NCBI GenBank assembly: GCA_947446635.1
Contig: CANFHF010000009.1
Span: forward strand, 494-64,493
Direction: 5' to 3'
Length of the DNA: 64,000 bases
Origin: Flavobacteriaceae bacterium
GTDB taxonomy: Bacteria > Bacteroidota > Bacteroidia > Flavobacteriales > Flavobacteriaceae
The position numbers and the translations under genes are program-made. The notes under the pieces are model-generated. The model made no database searches. It was not told where the DNA came from and was given only the letters and a program-made list of their open reading frames with translations. This document shows positions 1 to 13,261 of this stretch, piece after piece. How positions within the stretch are numbered: the stretch's first letter is position 1; each line of letters begins with the position of its first letter.

Positions 1-55
1 CGTTCAGTTATGGTTCGCCTTTGTTTCTATTTCACCTTATTACATTAAATCCAAT

Positions 56-2458
56 CTAATCAAAATTAATTTCGGGATATTTACAAATCTTTTTGGTTTT
101 TCTCACTATTAATCCACTGTTAATTTCGTCAACTATGTTGTGATATTTATGATATTCCTTTAAAAAAATATCCCCTTTATAATATGCGTCTTCAATTGAT
201 ACGTGATTGAATACACTATTTTTTAAATCTGTATCAAAAACATTTTCAATGTCGGTAACCACTTTTATTGAGTGCGTTTTGTACGCTTTATCAAATTGCT
301 TTGCGCCCGCCTTAATGTCATTGTTATCGGTTTTGTTAATCATATTCATTAATTCGGCTTTGAGTTGGTTTTGAATATCGACTTCTTTATTAATTTGTAA
401 ATCGCTATCACGTCCAGCAACCTCACAAAGAATTAAAAACAGTTGTTGTGCCGTGGCTCTATTATTTACTAACCGATTCAATGCCTTTAATTCATTTTCG
501 TAACTCGAAACCCTTTTCTTTAAAAATGCGTTTTGTTGTTGTGGTTTTAACGATATGCACTTAAAAGTTACGCTCTTTATACTACTATTATAAAGAGAGT
601 AACTCTTAACTCGTTTTCGTCCTTGCCTATGTAATCCACTACATAAAATATTAAACTTTTTAATAATAGCATACGTCAATAAGTTGTTGATTTTACGCCC
701 TGTTATTATAGCTTCATTCAAAAAACCATAATCATTGTTTGTTATGCGTTCCTGTAATAAATCATACAATTCAAAGTAATTATTTTTAATTGTCATTTTG
801 CCCCGTGCTTCATTTAATGCGTTAAGAAAATCAATTCTGTATTGAAAATTTAAGTTTTCTATTAAATCAAAATCCCTGGTCTTTGTTGTAATAAGTGAAG
901 CATTATATTGATACTTCATAACCTTAAAAAACATAGCACGAACATTAAAAACGTTATTACTAAATTCTCTAATGTGTTTCAATATTAAATAGACGTGCAT
1001 CGGGTTTGTAGGTTGTTTGTTTAAATATTCTAATGTAGAAAACATAACAGTGCAATTATAATTAAACGTGTCGGAATTGGCTTTAAAATTGTTTGTATTA
1101 AATCCCGCGCTTATGTATTCATACTTTGAATTGTAAAATTTAAAACCGTTTGCCGTGCCTTTAACTTTAGGTTTGATTGCTTCATACTTTGACGTTAAAT
1201 TTAAACCCTGTGGAATACTTCCGATATAAGCATAAGGCAAACGTTTATTTGACAAACTAAAACTTTCTTTTATAGCTGGGCGGTTAAGTTCTTTATATCC
1301 AAAATCACAATTTGGAATAACTTTTAAATTATAACATTCGGCTTTTGTCTTTGTGTCTATAAAATATAAAGCATCGTGCAACCGTGCGCCCCGTTCTAAA
1401 TTGTTTTGAGCGACAAAGGTCTTTATTGCTTTGTCTTCTCGACGTGTCATAAATTGAAAAAACTTTAAATGGTCATTGTGCGTGAAATACAATAACATTG
1501 TAATATGTTTTGACGCATAACCACACGATAAAAAAAAGTCAGCCGTAAAGTCTTTGGTTTTATATTCTCGACTGTTGCAAATGGTGTTATACATTTTCTT
1601 TGCTTCGCTTCGTGAAATATTTTTTGACTTCATTAAATCATTATAAACGTGGTCTTTTTGCTTTGCTCCCGTTAATGCGTCCAAGAAAGTAGGGAATGCG
1701 CTCTTTATATCACATTCAATTATTTTAAATGGCGTTAATGGTCGCAATTGTCGTGACGTTTTCGTTAATGGGTTGTATTCTCGATTATCTTTAATCAATA
1801 TATTAAAATGTGTTGTAGGTAATTTTAATTCTTTACATACCATAAACAAAATATAATAATACCATTGATTAACTAATGTAAAACCATTTATAGGTATATT
1901 TTCAGTCGTTGCCGTGTCAATATCATTGTACTTTTTATCTAAATAATTTCGATCAAAATTATAGTTGTCAATAGGTAGCTTTTGGCCTGTCGTTATGTAG
2001 TGGTTTAAATAGTCAATGTGTTGGTGATGTCCAAAATATTGCGAATTAAAAAACCACGCACTTTGAATTATTAACCAGCAATGTTTGAATAGTGGTGCAT
2101 CATTCAATTTATAAAAAGGCACGTCTATTTCGTGTATTGCCGTGTATGTGGTTAAGTTGTTCGCATCAAAAAAACCCTTTACCATTTCAACGGTGTAATA
2201 ACTATCTTTTATTTTATCCGTGAATATCTCACTATAAAAATAAGCCAATGCCAAACGCGTAATATCTGAAAACGAAACCCCGTAACCGTTTTTATTATCG
2301 CCCCGTATATCATTCAAAGCTTTTATAAATTCGGTTTCGATATTAACCGAAATTCGGTTTTGTATATCGGTTTTTAAATTAGAATAATTAAAAAAATCTA
2401 ATTCAATCCATTTTGCAATATAGGTTTTTGGCACGGCTGGTGTTGTTGCCGTGCTCAT
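56..2458 (-). CDS. 800-aa protein with a putative PolA/T7-RNAP-superfamily (TV-Pol-like) polymerase domain
   Basis: Ordered motifs REYNPLTKTSRQLR (aa 226-239), IECDIKSAFP (D250, motif A), RSEAKK (R283/K287, motif B), RLHDALYF (H361/D362, motif C). Flanking regions not recognised. Confidence 0.6.
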   Translation of the reverse strand: MSTATTPAVPKTYIAKWIELDFFNYSNLKTDIQNRISVNIETEFIKALNDIRGDNKNGYGVSFSDITRLALAYFYSEIFTDKIKDSYYTVEMVKGFFDANNLTTYTAIHEIDVPFYKLNDAPLFKHCWLIIQSAWFFNSQYFGHHQHIDYLNHYITTGQKLPIDNYNFDRNYLDKKYNDIDTATTENIPINGFTLVNQWYYYILFMVCKELKLPTTHFNILIKDNREYNPLTKTSRQLRPLTPFKIIECDIKSAFPTFLDALTGAKQKDHVYNDLMKSKNISRSEAKKMYNTICNSREYKTKDFTADFFLSCGYASKHITMLLYFTHNDHLKFFQFMTRREDKAIKTFVAQNNLERGARLHDALYFIDTKTKAECYNLKVIPNCDFGYKELNRPAIKESFSLSNKRLPYAYIGSIPQGLNLTSKYEAIKPKVKGTANGFKFYNSKYEYISAGFNTNNFKANSDTFNYNCTVMFSTLEYLNKQPTNPMHVYLILKHIREFSNNVFNVRAMFFKVMKYQYNASLITTKTRDFDLIENLNFQYRIDFLNALNEARGKMTIKNNYFELYDLLQERITNNDYGFLNEAIITGRKINNLLTYAIIKKFNILCSGLHRQGRKRVKSYSLYNSSIKSVTFKCISLKPQQQNAFLKKRVSSYENELKALNRLVNNRATAQQLFLILCEVAGRDSDLQINKEVDIQNQLKAELMNMINKTDNNDIKAGAKQFDKAYKTHSIKVVTDIENVFDTDLKNSVFNHVSIEDAYYKGDIFLKEYHKYHNIVDEINSGLIVRKTKKICKYPEINFD

Positions 2459-2462
2459 AAGT

Positions 2463-2744
2463 TTACACGTTTAAAGGTTGTAAACTTGCCTCAATTTCAC
2501 TGCGTAAAAAGTAAACGCGCGAACCAATGCCAAGCGGGTTTAATCGTTTTGACTTGCACCAGTTGTGTACCGTGCTAATGTCAACACTGAACATTTTTGC
2601 CACGTCTGAGCGTGTCAAATATTCCTTTGGTTGAACAGGGGCAAAATGTTTTAAAAAGTCGTCTAAAACTACTTTTACATCTGCTGTAATTTCATTTTTT
2701 AAATCTTGTGGCGAGGTTGCCACGAATTGAACTGTTGCGCTCAT
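2463..2744 (-). CDS. Helix-turn-helix DNA-binding protein, excisionase-like (HTH_17/MerR-like)
   Basis: YLTRSDVAKMFSVDISTVHNWCKSKRL...GSRVYFLRSEI is the typical excisionase winged-HTH pattern; lies inside the integrase-bearing element. Confidence 0.85.
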   Translation of the reverse strand: MSATVQFVATSPQDLKNEITADVKVVLDDFLKHFAPVQPKEYLTRSDVAKMFSVDISTVHNWCKSKRLNPLGIGSRVYFLRSEIEASLQPLNV

Positions 2745-2827
2745 AACTTAAGTTTTTATGTTATGAGAGCAAAGGGAATTGTTCGCTTGTTCCTTGTGAA
2801 GTACGGAATTGTACTTTTTACGGTACG

Positions 2828-3529
2828 TTATTTATTTTGAGGTTTAAACCAATCTAATGCGCTCGAATAGTCTTTTTTTCTTTGTGGACTTGTGGCTTGT
2901 AGTTTGGTTTTTATTTTTGTAAACTCCTCGCCGTATGTTTCAATAAACCATAATCTAAATGGTTCGGGTTTTTGATGTATAAATTTATCTTCAAATAAAC
3001 ATCTGTAATAATAACTTAAATCTTCATAACGCCCTGTTGTGTTTTTTGGCTTAACGTAATCGTTTAAGATATATTCAAACAATTTAAAACCATTATTTGA
3101 AAACATTTCACCATGTGGTTCATTTATTATTGTAATGTTGTTTTCGATTGTTGAGGTGTTTGATAAATTGAGGTTTTCGGGAATGGTTGTTTTACTAAAA
3201 ATACTATCTGATGCTGTTTCAAGTTCTGATTTTTTAATTTCTAAAAATGACATAATTTTATTGTAACTCGACAAATCTAATTCTATCACCCATTTTTTTA
3301 AATCAAGCTCTCCTATTTCTTCAAGTTCGCTTTTTTGATTTTCCGCTATTGGTCTGATATATTCTTTTATATATCTTATTTCGCTGTCAATAAAATTAAT
3401 TTCATCATTATCAATATGTCGTTTTATATAATATTCAATTAAATTAGGGTAATCACTTATATATTCCTCTAATGTTTTACCCCTGAAACTATCTGAATTG
3501 TCGGAATTATTTAATTTTAGATTTCTCAT
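2828..3529 (-). CDS. Hypothetical protein (233 aa) between integrase and excisionase
   Basis: Long acidic ORF co-oriented with its neighbours; no family recognised. Confidence 0.7.
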   Translation of the reverse strand: MRNLKLNNSDNSDSFRGKTLEEYISDYPNLIEYYIKRHIDNDEINFIDSEIRYIKEYIRPIAENQKSELEEIGELDLKKWVIELDLSSYNKIMSFLEIKKSELETASDSIFSKTTIPENLNLSNTSTIENNITIINEPHGEMFSNNGFKLFEYILNDYVKPKNTTGRYEDLSYYYRCLFEDKFIHQKPEPFRLWFIETYGEEFTKIKTKLQATSPQRKKDYSSALDWFKPQNK

Positions 3530-3557
3530 TCGCTATTTCTTTTAAATCTTAATAGTA

Positions 3558-4880
3558 TTAACATACAGTGCCATTTTTAATTACTTTCATTTCGGGTGCT
3601 TTGTCTTTATGTATGTCATTGTAAAACTTCATAAACAAATCGGCATTTTCGTCTGTATCCTCCGGGGCATTAATATAAACCCTAAAAATTGATTCTTTGC
3701 TATGTCCTGAAATGCCCATTAAAACGGGTGTCGGTATCTTTTTATAGTAGTTAGTACAAAAAGAACGCCTAAAAGAATGGGTAGTTATTAGTTTGTGTTT
3801 TTCATATTTATTAAAAACTTTACGCCCTGTTTTCGCATCATATATTTTACCCTCTGTCATTGTATTTATTTTGGCAATTTCGCAAACTTTTTTAATATGG
3901 TCATTTAGTTTTTGAGTTGAGATTTTATAAGGAAAACCGTTTTCAATTATATCAATAACGTGCGGAGCGATTATTCCAATTGTTATAGGTTTTTTCGTTT
4001 TTGTTTGCACTATGTCTAAATACATATTACCGCCTTTGTATCTTATATTGTCAGGTGTGATGTCGAGTAAATCCCCACCACGTTGTCCAATTTCACATCC
4101 TATCAACAACCATTTACGGGCGTTTTGATACGCTTCACTTTTTATTTCCGCTTTCCTTATTTCATCTAATTCCGAAAAAGATAAAGTTTGAATATATCGG
4201 TCTTCATCGCTTTCTGTCGCTATGGTAATTTGTTTAGCATACGAATTAACTTGAATACCTTTGTTTTCGGCTTCAATGCAGACAGTCTTAATATTAGCTA
4301 TATGTTTTGAGGATGTATTTATAGCATAATTCTTGGTTTTAAGAAGCCAATTTTCAAACTTATCGATTAATATTTGATTTATATCGATAAAGTGAATTTG
4401 CTTTTTTGCTTTGGCTTCGTATTCCTTTAAAATATTTTTTGTCGCTATGTAACTATTTTTTCTACTCAGTGATAGTCCGTGTTTGTAACCTCCTTTTACT
4501 TTTACTTTTCGGGTGTCGGCAGTATCGATAATATTTTGAATGTAGTTTGTGATTAATCCCTCATCAGTCTTCAATACCCTTTCAAAACAATCATTAATTT
4601 TCGAATTTAGCCAAAAAGAATCTATTACAATGGTTTCGCCCAAATCATTATTTAGGCTCTTAAAAAGGAATGATTCCAATTTTTTAAGGTTGTTGAAAAT
4701 TACTTTGTTTTCAGTATTGTTTTGTTTTGGTAGGTCAGTGCTTTCGCTCCAATCTTTAGGATTAATTGAAAATCCGGTATTCAGTTCAAGGTCTTGTTTT
4801 CCTCGACCTAAAATGAGACGGACTTTAATTGAAACATTTTTGTCGGCTGTACTTCTTAATCTGAATTTAATAGATGCCAT
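3558..4880 (-). CDS. int: Site-specific tyrosine recombinase/integrase
   Basis: Catalytic set GQRGGDL (R), QTKT (K), THSFRRSF (HxxR), SGHS (H), FRVY (Y); N-terminal arm-binding-like beta region. Start placed at ATG 4880 (MASIKFRLR) because a TAnnTTTG box lies at 4907-4914. Confidence 0.95.
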   Translation of the reverse strand: MASIKFRLRSTADKNVSIKVRLILGRGKQDLELNTGFSINPKDWSESTDLPKQNNTENKVIFNNLKKLESFLFKSLNNDLGETIVIDSFWLNSKINDCFERVLKTDEGLITNYIQNIIDTADTRKVKVKGGYKHGLSLSRKNSYIATKNILKEYEAKAKKQIHFIDINQILIDKFENWLLKTKNYAINTSSKHIANIKTVCIEAENKGIQVNSYAKQITIATESDEDRYIQTLSFSELDEIRKAEIKSEAYQNARKWLLIGCEIGQRGGDLLDITPDNIRYKGGNMYLDIVQTKTKKPITIGIIAPHVIDIIENGFPYKISTQKLNDHIKKVCEIAKINTMTEGKIYDAKTGRKVFNKYEKHKLITTHSFRRSFCTNYYKKIPTPVLMGISGHSKESIFRVYINAPEDTDENADLFMKFYNDIHKDKAPEMKVIKNGTVC

Positions 4881-4906
4881 ATTTAATTTTGAAAGGTTAA
4901 TCAAGG

Positions 4907-4914
4907 CAAAGATA
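4907..4914 (-). promoter_or_regulatory. Bacteroidota -7 promoter box of the integrase
   Basis: Minus strand TATCTTTG matches TAnnTTTG, 27 nt before the ATG. Confidence 0.6.
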
Positions 4915-4940
4915 TTCATTTTACAATACGATTCCAAAAG

Positions 4941-4962
4941 TTGCCCGACATTTGCCCGACAT
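4941..4962. repeat. Perfect 11-bp tandem direct repeat TTGCCCGACAT x2, candidate integrase arm-type site
   Basis: Seen directly; lies between the integrase start and the att core. Confidence 0.65.
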
Positions 4963-5096
4963 TTTTACAATCATATTACATTTTATTCAATTTCATTCTA
5001 TCAATATGTTGTTTCAGATATTGCTATTAAGCATTGAATTTGTTGAGTTTAATAGGTTTTTATGCGATGTTTTGAGGGCTATTGAAAAATGTCAAA

Positions 5097-5126
5097 CCGT
5101 GCCGGTTCGACTCCGGCTCCGGGTAC
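5097..5126 (+). other. att site: duplicated tRNA 3' end (T-arm plus acceptor 3' strand), probably tRNA-Leu
   Basis: CCGT-GCCGG-TTCGACT-CCGGC-TCCGGGT-A-C forms a perfect T-stem/loop and acceptor 3' strand, with no matching 5' half upstream. The Leu assignment is inferred from recalled Bacteroidota tRNA-Leu ends. Confidence 0.8.
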
Positions 5127-5156
5127 AAAAACCGCTTCGAAAGAAGCGGTTTTTTT
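5127..5156 (+). terminator. Intrinsic terminator downstream of the tRNA fragment (bidirectional, also ends bioF)
   Basis: ACCGCTTC-GAAA-GAAGCGGT stem-loop flanked by A and T runs. Confidence 0.9.
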
Positions 5157-5230
5157 GTCTTCTTACTATGGATCTTCCCTAAACTTGTGAATCAAAAAAA
5201 TGAAGCAGTAATACCTGTTTCATCTCTAGT

Positions 5231-6373
5231 CTAAAAAACAAAAACACTCAACAAACCCAATACTTCCGATATTTCTTCTTTGGTATTGAAGCTATGAAGG
5301 CAAAACCGCAATCGCTCTTGCCCTTCGGGAACGGTGGGAGAGAGAATAGCTTTAACATTAAACCCTTTTCCTTGAAGTTGATTTGCCATGGCTTTTACGT
5401 TTTGGTTTCCGGGAATTATGGCGCTTTGAATTGCCGATTTACTTCGGACAAACATAGGTTTCAATCCCAACAGATTCTTTTCTTGGTTGAAATGAATGAT
5501 ATTTTCCCGAAGTTTTTCGATCGTCTGCTTTTCTGATTCCAAATGTTGATAACCCACTAAAATCGTGGCAACAGAATGCGGTGAAAGTCCCGTGGTATAA
5601 ATGAAACTTCGGGCGAAATTGAGGAGATAATCCTTCAATTTTTGCGAACCTAATATTGCTGCTCCATGACAACCCAATCCTTTTCCGAAAGTCATTATTC
5701 GGGTAAAAACTCGGTCTTGTAAACCCAATAGTTGAACCAATCCTTCTCCTTTATCGCCGAAAACCCCCAATGCATGCGCTTCATCAATTACTAAATTACA
5801 CTTGTATTTTTCGGAAATTTGTGTTAATTCTTCAAGATTTGGCGTGTCGCCATCCATAGAGAAAACACTTTCGGTGACGACGTAGACTTCTATAAGCTCA
5901 GTCTGAAAGCGTTGGATGAGTTTTTCTAGGTCTTCGAAATCATGATGCTGAAACTTATAGGATTTGGCATTCGAAAGTTGGATTCCATCTCGAATGGAAG
6001 CATGGCACAATTCATCATACAAAACCACATCGCCTTTTTGTGGAACCGAACTAAAAAAACCCACATTAGCATCGTAACCCGAATTGAAAATCAAAGCACT
6101 TTCCGTTTGATGAAATTGGGCGATACTATTTTCCGCTTCTTGATAGACTTTGTGGTTTCCGGATAATAACCGAGAACCCGTTGCTCCGTTTTGAACACAA
6201 TTATTTTCAATTAGATACCGATGCGTTTTATCGAAAATAGCTTTGTTTTTAGAAAATCCAATATAATCATTCGATGCAAAATCGATTAAATCATTAGGCA
6301 AAGACAATTTCCGTAAAGCATTGTTTTGCTTGCGAATTTCGAGTTTAGCGGAGAGACTTTTCGGAAACTTCAT
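5231..6373 (-). CDS. bioF: 8-amino-7-oxononanoate synthase family PLP enzyme
   Basis: DFASNDYIG, GATGSRLLSGN, DELCHASIRDG, SVFSMDGD, DEAHALG, TFGKGLG motifs. Confidence 0.9.
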   Translation of the reverse strand: MKFPKSLSAKLEIRKQNNALRKLSLPNDLIDFASNDYIGFSKNKAIFDKTHRYLIENNCVQNGATGSRLLSGNHKVYQEAENSIAQFHQTESALIFNSGYDANVGFFSSVPQKGDVVLYDELCHASIRDGIQLSNAKSYKFQHHDFEDLEKLIQRFQTELIEVYVVTESVFSMDGDTPNLEELTQISEKYKCNLVIDEAHALGVFGDKGEGLVQLLGLQDRVFTRIMTFGKGLGCHGAAILGSQKLKDYLLNFARSFIYTTGLSPHSVATILVGYQHLESEKQTIEKLRENIIHFNQEKNLLGLKPMFVRSKSAIQSAIIPGNQNVKAMANQLQGKGFNVKAILSPTVPEGQERLRFCLHSFNTKEEISEVLGLLSVFVF

Positions 6374-6493
6374 AAGGGCAAAGTTATTGATTTAATGTTT
6401 AAAAATCCCGCAAAATACTAATTGCCATAAGGAAACTCCAAAAAAAAAAGTCACACATTGCTGTATGACTTTATAATTTATTTGGAATTGCTT

Positions 6494-6775
6494 TTAGTCT
6501 GCTAACACAATTACTTTATTGTCTTTCATTTCTATGGTTCCAGATTCAATAGCAAGGGTGTAGTTCTGCTCGTTCACTTTCGTGAATAAATTTTCAGATT
6601 CTTTGCTGAATTTGAAACTCGGAGCCGTAATCTTTACGGTTCCCTTTTGAAGCAAAGAAACTATTGGGGCGTGATTATTTAGCATTTGAAAATGACCATT
6701 AACTCCTGGAAGGGAAACGGAAGTCACTTCGCCTGAAAATAATTTTGCTTCTGGTGATACTATTTCTAAAATCAT
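6494..6775 (-). CDS. atpC: ATP synthase F1 epsilon subunit
   Basis: LEIVSPE...LPG..G.FQMLNNHAPIVS; directly downstream of atpD. Confidence 0.93.
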   Translation of the reverse strand: MILEIVSPEAKLFSGEVTSVSLPGVNGHFQMLNNHAPIVSLLQKGTVKITAPSFKFSKESENLFTKVNEQNYTLAIESGTIEMKDNKVIVLAD

Positions 6776-11416: not shown

Positions 11417-13261
11417 TTATTCCACGGTTACTGATTTAGCCAAATTTCTAGGCTGATCCACATTACACCCTCTCATCACAGCAATGTGATAGGACAATAA
11501 TTGCAAAGGAATAGTGGTTATCAAAGGGGATAAAGCGTCCGAAGTTTCAGGAATTTCAATAATATAATCTGCCAACTCACGAACTTGCGTATCGCCTTTG
11601 GTTACCACGGCAATGATTATTCCGCTACGGGATTTAATTTCCTGAATGTTGCTCACAATTTTGTCATAATGTCCTTGCTTTGGAGCAATGACAACTACAG
11701 GCATGCGTTCGTCAATCAAGGCGATTGGGCCGTGCTTCATTTCTGCTGCGGGATAACCCTCAGCATGGATATACGAAATTTCTTTGAGTTTCAACGCGCC
11801 TTCTAGAGCAACAGGAAAGTTATATCCTCTACCTAAATAGAGACAATTATGTGAATCTTTGAAAACAGAAGCAATTTCTTTTGCTTTATTGTTGGTTTCC
11901 AAAGCCTCTTTTACTTTTTCAGGAATGATTTTCAATTCTTGTAAATACTTGTGTAAATCCGTCTTAGACAACGTTCCTTTGGCTTGTGCCAATCGCAAGG
12001 CCATCATCGTTAGAACTGTGATTTGGGTAGTAAATGCTTTGGTAGATGCCACTCCAATTTCTGGACCCGCATGGGTATAAGCTCCCGCATGACTTTCTCT
12101 GGAAATAGAAGAACCCACTACATTACAAACTCCAAAAACAAAGGCTCCTTTTTCTTTGGCCAATTTTATGGCCGCCATAGTATCAGCTGTTTCACCAGAT
12201 TGTGATATGGCTATTACCACGTCTTTGCTATTTATTATAGGATTTCTATATCTAAATTCAGACGCATATTCAACTTCTACGGGAATTCGGGTAAATTCTT
12301 CAAAAATATATTCTGCTACCAAACCGGCGTGCCAAGAGGTGCCACAGGCGATAATAATAATTCTGTCGGCATTCAGAAATTTCTCTAAATTATCCTCAAT
12401 ACCTGACATTTTGATTATTCCTTCGTTGGCATTAAGTCTTCCGCGATAGGTGTCTTTTATAACGCTAGGTTGTTCGTAGATCTCCTTCAACATGAAATGG
12501 TCATAACCCCCTTTTTCAATTTGCTCCAAGTTCATTTGAAGTTCTTGAATATAAGGATCAACCAAAGAATCATCTTTAATTTTTCGAACTTTTATAGGTT
12601 TGTGCAACCTAATATTTGCCATTTCCCCGTCTTCTAAGTAAACGGCATTTGAGGTGTATTCTATAAATGGAGAAGCATCAGACGCAATGAAATATTCTTC
12701 TTCTCCAATGCCTATTGCTAAAGGACTTCCCAATCGGGCAACAACAATTTCATCTGGGTTTTTTTTGTCAAAAACAGCTATTGCGTAGGCTCCTACCACT
12801 TGATTTAATGCCACTTGAACCGCTTTCCCTAATTTTAGTTTTTCTTTTTTCTGAATTTCTTCAATAAGGTTTACCAATACTTCTGTATCGGTATCGGAGT
12901 GAAAAACATAGCCTCTTTTTAGTAGTTCCTTTTTAAGTGGGGCGTAGTTTTCAATGATTCCGTTATGAATTATTGCCAAATCGCCAGAATTAGAAAGATG
13001 TGGATGAGAATTCACATCGTTTGGCACTCCATGAGTTGCCCAACGGGTGTGCCCTATTCCAATAGTTCCGGTTATAGTAATTTCTTTGGATTGCTCTTCA
13101 AGGTCTGAAACCTTTCCTTTTGTTTTAGACAGCTTGATGTTGTTTCCATCATATAACATGACTCCTGCACTATCATATCCTCTGTATTCAAGCCTTTTTA
13201 ACCCTTTTATAACAATAGGAAAAGCCTCTCTATAGCCAATATATCCAACAATTCCACACAT
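11417..13261 (-). CDS. glmS: Glutamine--fructose-6-phosphate transaminase
   Basis: MCGIVG N-terminal nucleophile, GHTRWATHG, SQSGETADT, C-terminal PRNLAKSVTVE. Confidence 0.99.
   Translation of the reverse strand: MCGIVGYIGYREAFPIVIKGLKRLEYRGYDSAGVMLYDGNNIKLSKTKGKVSDLEEQSKEITITGTIGIGHTRWATHGVPNDVNSHPHLSNSGDLAIIHNGIIENYAPLKKELLKRGYVFHSDTDTEVLVNLIEEIQKKEKLKLGKAVQVALNQVVGAYAIAVFDKKNPDEIVVARLGSPLAIGIGEEEYFIASDASPFIEYTSNAVYLEDGEMANIRLHKPIKVRKIKDDSLVDPYIQELQMNLEQIEKGGYDHFMLKEIYEQPSVIKDTYRGRLNANEGIIKMSGIEDNLEKFLNADRIIIIACGTSWHAGLVAEYIFEEFTRIPVEVEYASEFRYRNPIINSKDVVIAISQSGETADTMAAIKLAKEKGAFVFGVCNVVGSSISRESHAGAYTHAGPEIGVASTKAFTTQITVLTMMALRLAQAKGTLSKTDLHKYLQELKIIPEKVKEALETNNKAKEIASVFKDSHNCLYLGRGYNFPVALEGALKLKEISYIHAEGYPAAEMKHGPIALIDERMPVVVIAPKQGHYDKIVSNIQEIKSRSGIIIAVVTKGDTQVRELADYIIEIPETSDALSPLITTIPLQLLSYHIAVMRGCNVDQPRNLAKSVTVE

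Follow-up and report, generated by a model that had tools for sequence, protein, structure and literature searches.

An integrative element of Flavobacteriaceae encodes a candidate primase-polymerase with a reduced, family-A-like core

The left end of the DNA analysed here (the window, 64,000 nucleotides (nt) of contig CANFHF010000009.1 in assembly GCA_947446635.1 of a Flavobacteriaceae bacterium) carries part of a small integrative element, which extends past that end. Four co-oriented and tightly spaced genes, all on the minus strand, lie there: a tyrosine recombinase, or integrase, at 3558..4937 (Pfam Phage_integrase and Phage_int_SAM_5; phrog_1, E 1e-22), a gene for 233 amino acids (aa) at 2828..3529, a 93-aa excisionase/AlpA-like gene of the helix-turn-helix (HTH) family HTH_17 at 2463..2744 (Pfam PF12728, E 1e-10) and, last, an open reading frame (ORF) of 800 aa at 56..2458, the start of which lies 4 nt beyond the end of the HTH_17 gene. 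The GC content is 30–31% in the element and 36–38% in its flanks. We focus on the 800-aa protein, which consists of a helical N-terminal region, a mini PolA-like core and a C-terminal half of ~400 aa. In the reading that we favour, with moderate confidence, aa ~215–392 form a reduced family-A/TV-Pol-like polymerase core and the protein is the primase-polymerase replication protein of the element.

An earlier note on this DNA, made from the letters alone, had proposed a hidden polymerase core of this kind at 1373..1783, in an orphan protein of an integrative element. Since the codon for aa 226 begins at 1783 and that for aa 362 finishes at 1373, these coordinates are exact. The residues that it named (R226, Y228, D250, R283, K287, E341, H361 and D362) are all at the positions given for them in the translation, and the contexts IECDIKSAFP, RSEAKKMYN, FFQFMTRRE and RLHDALYF are all found there. 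Structure was predicted with AlphaFold2, both for the full-length protein (predicted local distance difference test (pLDDT) 86.9) and for a domain of 161 aa built from a 56-sequence domain alignment (pLDDT 93.5, predicted TM-score 0.84), in which domain residue i corresponds to aa i+211. The order of elements in domain numbering is a β-hairpin (10–12/15–17, with R226), a strand (35–39, ending in D250), six helices and a second hairpin (147–149/152–156) with H361-D362 at its turn; D260 lies in the first helix, Y272 in the second, R283, K287 and N295 in the third and E341 in the sixth. In topology, the prediction corresponds to the palm plus fingers of family A, as the earlier note had expected.

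The palm-and-fingers core (aa 215–392; 1283..1816, minus strand, as are all parts of the protein) begins with the hairpin of aa 221–228 (1775..1798), formed in both models by strands 221–223 and 226–228, which carries the invariant R226 and is followed by the near-invariant R239. The motif A strand comes next (aa 246–251; 1706..1723), with D250 at its end (codon 1709–1711) just where it had been proposed, and after it a helix of aa 254–263 with A254 and D260. The motif B helix (aa 283–295; 1574..1612) reads R283-x2-A286-K287-x3-N291-x3-N295, and both R283 and K287 fall within the helix of aa 283–294 in the models. A long helix (aa 333–352; 1403..1462) contains the invariant E341; it had been described as ending in this residue, and while the helix is indeed there, E341 lies in its middle. 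The motif C hairpin (aa 358–367; 1358..1387) has R359-x-H361-D362 at the turn between strands 358–360 and 363–367.

Directly before the core, the full-length model places two helices, aa 170–185 and 194–210 (1829–1951), which are candidates for a thumb. They are partly common to the other architectures described below, and profile positions ~130–215 are common to the group fused to an SF3 helicase; on the predicted structure, these helices may act as the thumb. The N-terminal region as a whole (aa 1–210; 1829..2458) is all-helical in the AlphaFold2 secondary structure and, because it contains no α/β fold, there is no exonuclease domain of RNase-H-like fold, again as had been suggested. The C-terminal half (aa 393–800; 59..1282) is β-rich to ~450 and then made of long helices; it has no P-loop and no database match. 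A C-terminal helicase in the 800-aa protein was considered and rejected on the absence of a P-loop.

The protein has homologues and so is no orphan. About 200 clusters came up in a word-indexed search, every one of them Flavobacterium-type and either unnamed or ‘hypothetical’, and when 1.84 billion representatives were searched exhaustively with a profile the number was 225 clusters at 50% identity; a homologue search from the domain alignment gave only 9 fragments. The expectation that such proteins would be annotated only as hypothetical is thus borne out: the 800-aa protein matches nothing in Pfam (checked to E ≤ 1), NCBIfam or PHROGs, and scans of Pfam, NCBIfam, PHROGs and PADLOC with the protein and its distant members returned nothing relevant. 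An alignment of 105 representatives of the 50%-identity clusters, which reaches down to about 25% identity, shows R226, D250, Y272, K287, N295, E341 and D362 to be invariant (105/105 each). R239 (100/105), A254, D260 (99/105), Y314, R359 (104/105) and H361 (104/105) are conserved in at least 90%, and R283 is kept in 92 of the 95 sequences without a gap at that position. Eight of the ten residues named in the earlier note are among the 17 positions, out of 137, conserved at ≥88% (hypergeometric P = 4e-7); they are conserved beyond chance. When 50 full-length relatives, as little as 18% identical, are compared over the whole 800-aa protein, 15 columns are invariant and 14 of them fall within aa 226–362. 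Of the outcomes that the earlier note had named as contradicting its proposal, neither the lack of a predicted palm/fingers fold nor poor conservation in homologues was observed.

The same exhaustive search shows that profile positions ~200–390 recur alone in three other settings, namely at the C-terminus of ~800–930-aa proteins, near the N-terminus of ~800-aa proteins and in short proteins. Proteins with the C-terminal copy stop 24–35 residues past the HD motif, after one further conserved strand, so that the minimal unit is aa ~215–392, or ~180 residues. This segment is a separable domain, and in every architecture an integrase or HTH_17 gene is nearby. In one group of proteins, the domain stands N-terminal to a D5-like SF3 helicase with Walker A GGRGKS, Walker B YIIDDV and motif C ITTN (matches to DUF5906 are weak and sub-threshold), and the gene directly follows an HTH_17 gene, with an integrase nearby. 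The PolA-like core in this group takes the slot that is normally that of an AEP or DnaG primase; it was from an argument of this kind, ‘in situ displacement’, that Iyer et al. predicted the TV-Pols to have primase activity (PMC2579912). In a second group (P0166, P0182, P0198 and about 50 other representatives; loci L006–L008), proteins of 800–930 aa have an N-terminal SF2-like helicase module, with DEAD-family Pfam matches, DEFQ and STAT motifs and a motif I, TGIGGTT, that lacks the Walker lysine, and the core at their extreme C-terminus. Genes of this second group follow closely on an integrase; the islands around them are variable and also contain AbiEii, RloB/AAA_15, resolvase and methylase genes.

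Structural neighbours were sought with Foldseek. For the domain model, the best matches among the viral models of BFVD are two phage proteins, A0A516L5C2 (409 aa; E 1.2e-4, query-normalised TM-score (TMq) 0.67) and A0A8D9FR19, ‘Putative DNA polymerase I [uncultured marine phage]’ (403 aa; E 1.1e-3, TMq 0.69), both with a probability of 1.0 and over the whole domain. Next come ~430-aa proteins of Aeromonas and Rheinheimera phages (E 0.017–0.43), one of them named ‘DNA polymerase’; their size, and for the Rheinheimera match the phage group as well, is that of the divPolA2 class (PMC11348598). In the PDB (350,542 chains), the highest TMq values in the list for the domain model, 0.33–0.38, belong to two family-A polymerases at E ~3, and because this domain-only search was non-significant it was repeated with the full-length model. 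All 50 matches then listed are family-A DNA polymerases (Bst, Klenow, KlenTaq, apicoplast Pol, M. smegmatis Pol1, Aquifex Pol I and Pol theta), with E-values of 0.022–0.3, probabilities of up to 0.97 and 305–508 aligned columns. No single E-value in this search is compelling; what is compelling is that the matches listed belong exclusively to one enzyme family.

Profile comparison with hhalign points, weakly, in the same direction. Against a divPolA2 profile of 29 sequences, built from the published representative L113:25469-26761, the domain profile gave P = 0.01–0.03, collinear over all motifs. The pairs, with the residue of this domain given first, are R226 with an Arg, R239 with R242, D250 with D256, Y272 with Y278, R283 with R291, K287 with K295 and D362 with D394, and the divPolA2 partners are invariant or near-invariant there. 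A scan of IMG/VR for divPolA2 relatives found none. In a comparison with the T7 gp5 family, the alignment of which was built from 78 viral contigs, motif B alone came into register (R283/K287 with R518/K522).

Two other polymerase classes were tried and rejected. The strings D250-x-x-S-A-x-P and K287-x3-N291 are similar to the A and B motifs of family B; motif C, however, is HD and not DTD, and the Foldseek PDB lists contain no structure of family B. A primase of the AEP/PrimPol type was rejected since no Pfam, PHROG or NCBIfam primase model matches and no AEP is among the Foldseek matches listed.

A number of observations weigh against the identification of the protein as a family-A-type replicative polymerase. 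The domain model alone has nothing significant in the PDB (best E = 1), none of the matches listed for the full-length model falls below E 0.001, and the TM-scores of the latter are low and the root-mean-square deviations high. The profile comparison with T7 gp5 is non-significant (P 0.19), a profile search of PDB sequences returned no polymerase, and 0 of 56 domain members match Pfam DNA_pol_A (PF00476) even at E ≤ 10. Canonical family-A enzymes have RxxxKxxxFxxxYG as motif B, with the classical O-helix aromatics F762/Y766 in Klenow, and HDE as motif C; the positions K+4 and K+8 are N291 and N295 here, and an Ala, Gly or Ser stands in place of the acidic residue that follows the motif C Asp. 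The window protein itself has neither a helicase nor a P-loop. As to autonomous replication of the element, relatives are absent from the phage, plasmid and IMG/VR collections: neither the domain consensus nor the full protein has a tblastn match in phages and plasmids, and a scan of IMG/VR with the family alignment found none.

The differences in the O-helix and in motif C make an RNA-polymerase or RNA-priming function the main rival. An RNA polymerase of this sort, single-subunit and of the T7/mitochondrial/N4 type, would not be a DNA primase-polymerase; it would either transcribe the genes of the element or act at the origin, by synthesising an RNA primer or R-loop. Motif C of T7 RNA polymerase is HDS, which the H-D-(A/G/S) of this family is like and the canonical HDE is not, and the position four residues after D250 is a nearly invariant small residue, A254. 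The conserved motif B tyrosine of T7 RNA polymerase, Y639, has on the other hand no counterpart, with N295 at that position, and neither a promoter-recognition N-terminal domain nor a specificity loop is evident. The closest described class, divPolA2, has itself been proposed as possibly an RNA polymerase (PMC11348598); all 50 full-length matches listed are nevertheless DNA polymerases, no RNA polymerase of the T7, mitochondrial or N4 type is among the PDB matches listed for either model, and fusions to SF3 and SF2-like helicases are typical of replication and not of transcription proteins. We consider this explanation unlikely. 

The other two explanations are less likely than an RNA polymerase. 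One is a PolA-like polymerase with another job, in repair or translesion synthesis, or in anti-phage or addiction synthesis triggered by infection, to which we would give a small chance. It would suit the SF2-like fusions in islands beside AbiEii, RloB/AAA_15 and methylase genes, the view that divPolA2 is non-replicative in its phages (PMC11348598), and elements that carry small cargo genes and are not seen as plasmids or in viromes. No PADLOC model matched, however, the gene belongs with integrase and HTH_17 to the constant core of the element and not to its variable cargo, and replicases of satellites or integrative elements classically have the layout of the SF3 fusion, downstream of HTH_17. 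The other holds that the protein is no working polymerase at all, whether by wrong fold assignment and some other chemistry or as a dead PolA relic that binds DNA as an initiator; we rate it as improbable, the lowest of the three. Every link to PolA is statistically weak (PDB E ≥ 0.02, hhalign P 0.01–0.19, no Pfam match), and the sole hint at sequence level in the PDB, from phmmer and profile searches, consists of weak rows for a TetR-type HTH (aa ~303–352 at E ~0.3). An HTH inside the fingers is, though, itself a described feature of family A and TV-Pols (PMC2579912), the BFVD matches are significant over the whole domain, and all 50 PDB matches listed for the full-length model come from one enzyme family out of all the chains searched. 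In favour of catalysis, exactly the metal-ligand and phosphate-binding residues are strictly invariant over very divergent sequences.

In the primase-polymerase reading, the parts of the core would work as follows. The β-hairpin would present R226 to the primer/template, D250 (motif A, at the end of the first palm strand) and D362 (motif C, HD) would chelate the two catalytic metals, and R283 and K287, on an O-helix-like fingers helix, would bind the phosphates of the incoming nucleotide. The element would insert into the 3′ end of a tRNA or tmRNA gene and, after excision, the polymerase would prime DNA synthesis de novo on the circular form, extend it, or both. The C-terminal half may recognise the origin or recruit host replication factors, such as the host helicase. 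With the O-helix aromatics missing and a motif C of HD(A/G/S), the substrate may be either deoxynucleoside or ribonucleoside triphosphates.

Related elements support the integrative setting that the earlier note had assumed. With the close-family alignment, 23 related loci (L009–L031) were found in named genomes of Flavobacterium, Algoriella, Aequorivita and Mariniflexile. The order integrase, variable gene, HTH_17 and polymerase is kept in most of them, with HTH_17 upstream in ~20/23 and the integrase syntenic in 18/23. In six loci, a direct repeat near the integrase matches the 3′ end of a tRNA-Arg, tRNA-Leu or tmRNA gene that lies 1.5–5 kb beyond the polymerase gene; the elements delimited by these repeats are 7.4–11 kb long. 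Four complete elements (7.4–8.2 kb) have only small genes besides, with ORF starts that resemble signal peptides in two of them; no relaxase, capsid gene or other replication gene is shown by these four or by the module in the window. The second gene of the module, at 2828–3529 (minus strand) in the window, occupies a variable slot: across the element in the window and the 23 loci its product differs in sequence and in size, from 233 to 626 aa, and it has no match in the Pfam, PHROGs and NCBIfam libraries.

Several features of these relatives differ from element to element. Many have an extra ORF of 98–123 aa between HTH_17 and the polymerase gene, abutting or overlapping the start of the latter (L013 7701–7997, L022 7668–7997, L027 7621–7992 and L028 7630–8001), which the element in the window does not have; it could encode a partner subunit, in the way that MP accompanies CCPol. 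Four elements have a GC-rich palindrome, TACGCG(CG)CGTA, in one or two copies on the stretch that separates the polymerase gene from the tRNA end (L013 11722/11904, L017 ~14776/14816, L018 ~14985 and L028 10419/10476); it is found nowhere else in the 372 kb of these AT-rich loci, and not in the window, and for this subset it is a candidate origin or operator. In L022, a 21-nt direct repeat, TGTTGACTAAATGTTGACTAA, which is two copies of TGTTGACTAA, stands at 4999–5019 and 12493–12513, just inside both element ends, and these copies are possibly arm-type sites of the integrase.

In the window itself, the integrase-side end of the element is probably marked by an att remnant. Just beyond the integrase, at 5101..5126 on the plus strand, the sequence GCCGGTTCGACTCCGGCTCCGGGTAC resembles the 3′ half of a tRNA (T-arm and acceptor); it ends in GGGTAC and is followed by a strong terminator hairpin at 5128–5156. 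A complete tRNA is absent at this site, and the 5′ acceptor strand that the remnant implies would begin with A, which is unusual. The 485 further bases of L001 contain neither an att repeat nor a tRNA for this element, an Rfam scan of 1–6500 found nothing meaningful, and in 1–5300 there are no convincing iterons. Two low-complexity ORFs on the plus strand, one of 162 aa (4549–5037, largely antisense to the integrase) and one of 76 aa (4952–5182, just past it), are very likely not genes.

PolA-derived primase-polymerases were predicted in 2008 (PMC2579912), and CCPol-MP is the one that has been shown biochemically (PMC7581432). It is possible, and we put it no higher than a tentative suggestion, that the protein described here has the smallest self-sufficient family-A-type core yet (~180 aa), comes from an unannotated lineage and represents a third kind of primase, derived from PolA, that works without an SSB (single-stranded DNA-binding) partner, is exchangeable with AEP or DnaG before SF3 helicases and has independently been fused to an SF2-like helicase module as a bacterial mimic of the Pol theta layout. 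In named genomes, the lineage is so far confined to Flavobacteriaceae. If the protein is active, the principle of the PolA-derived primase-polymerase would reach a second bacterial phylum, the palm and fingers of Pol I could be stripped to about 180 residues and without the O-helix aromatics, and several hundred ‘hypothetical’ proteins, the constant core of small tRNA/tmRNA-integrating elements, would receive a name and a testable function. For studies of how a right-hand polymerase initiates de novo, so compact a core would moreover offer an attractive, minimal scaffold. From the described relatives, the family differs in the ~180-aa core, the 400-aa C-terminal half, the fusion to an N-terminal helicase in some members, the absence of an SSB partner among the genes identified and the occurrence so far in chromosomal elements only.

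The layout of the element is shared with P4-like satellites, phage-inducible chromosomal islands and further integrative elements, in which an integrase and an HTH_17 gene are likewise followed by a large replication protein. In those systems, an AEP or DnaG primase with a D5/SF3 helicase is encoded downstream of the AlpA/HTH_17 gene, whereas here the catalytic fold is PolA-like and not AEP or TOPRIM, and the window protein is without a helicase module. With canonical family-A enzymes (Klenow/Bst/Taq, T7 gp5 and Pol theta), the present family agrees in the kind of motifs A, B and C, in their order and in the predicted palm/fingers topology, and family-A enzymes are its only fold neighbours among the PDB matches listed for the full-length model; relatives with an N-terminal SF2-like helicase and a C-terminal polymerase mimic the layout of Pol theta. 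It differs from them in a core of about 180 aa in place of about 400, in having no 3′-5′ exonuclease and in its lack of the O-helix aromatics. 

Among described proteins, the best structural neighbours are divPolA2 and the ~400–435-aa phage proteins of the ‘putative DNA polymerase I’ kind (BFVD E 1.2e-4 to 0.43). divPolA2, of barbaviruses and Vibrio phages, is a diverged PolA of ~430 aa without a canonical thumb or an exonuclease (PMC11348598), and it shares with the present family the palm and fingers, here as predicted, the absence of a canonical thumb and of an exonuclease and an N-terminal domain without an assigned role. It is, on the other hand, a phage gene of variable neighbourhoods that stands beside a regular PolB, whereas the present family is chromosomal and linked to integrases; its motif C is FDE and not HD(A/G/S), and its motif B keeps YY where the present family has N291 and N295. 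The similarity is too weak to place the two in one family.

The TV-Pols and CCPol-MP are also close in the features described for them. CCPol-MP of SCCmec, itself a TV-Pol, is a proven PolA-type primase-polymerase (PMC7581432), an activity that is predicted for the TV-Pols at large. In common with both, the present family has a minimal, exonuclease-free core of family-A type, an all-helical N-terminal region and a place in mobile elements with a lambda-type integrase, or else a fusion to a D5-like SF3 helicase. There are also differences: the present family matches no Pfam or NCBIfam model, its core is smaller (~180 aa) and joined to an extra C-terminal half of ~400 aa, and the N-terminal SF2-like helicase fusion of some members is not described for TV-Pols; in contrast to CCPol-MP, no gene for an MP- or SSB-like partner was identified for the present protein, which is a further point against its being a primase-polymerase of that kind. 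The defining core of the TV-Pols consists of a hairpin with an invariant Arg, an RRM-like palm in which two highly conserved Asp chelate metal, fingers that come after the first palm strand and have a conserved Asp as well as RxxxK, the latter within a helix of a tri-helical HTH, and an N-terminal thumb made of two antiparallel helices (PMC2579912). Here, the hairpin carries R226 (105/105), D250 at a strand end and D362 at a hairpin turn (105/105 both) follow in the order of the palm, and the fingers have D260, R283 and K287 together with the weak TetR-HTH match; the order of motifs that the earlier note had recognised is present, an exonuclease is likewise missing, and there is a link to an integrase or, in relatives, to a D5-like helicase. 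The set of TV-Pols described in 2008 already contained proteins of Flavobacteriales, Polaribacter, Psychroflexus and Cytophaga, among them Flavobacteriales and Cytophaga proteins that have an N-terminal helical domain and adjoin lambda-type integrases (PMC2579912). As far as the predicted models allow, the present family fits the TV-Pols in function and in architecture.

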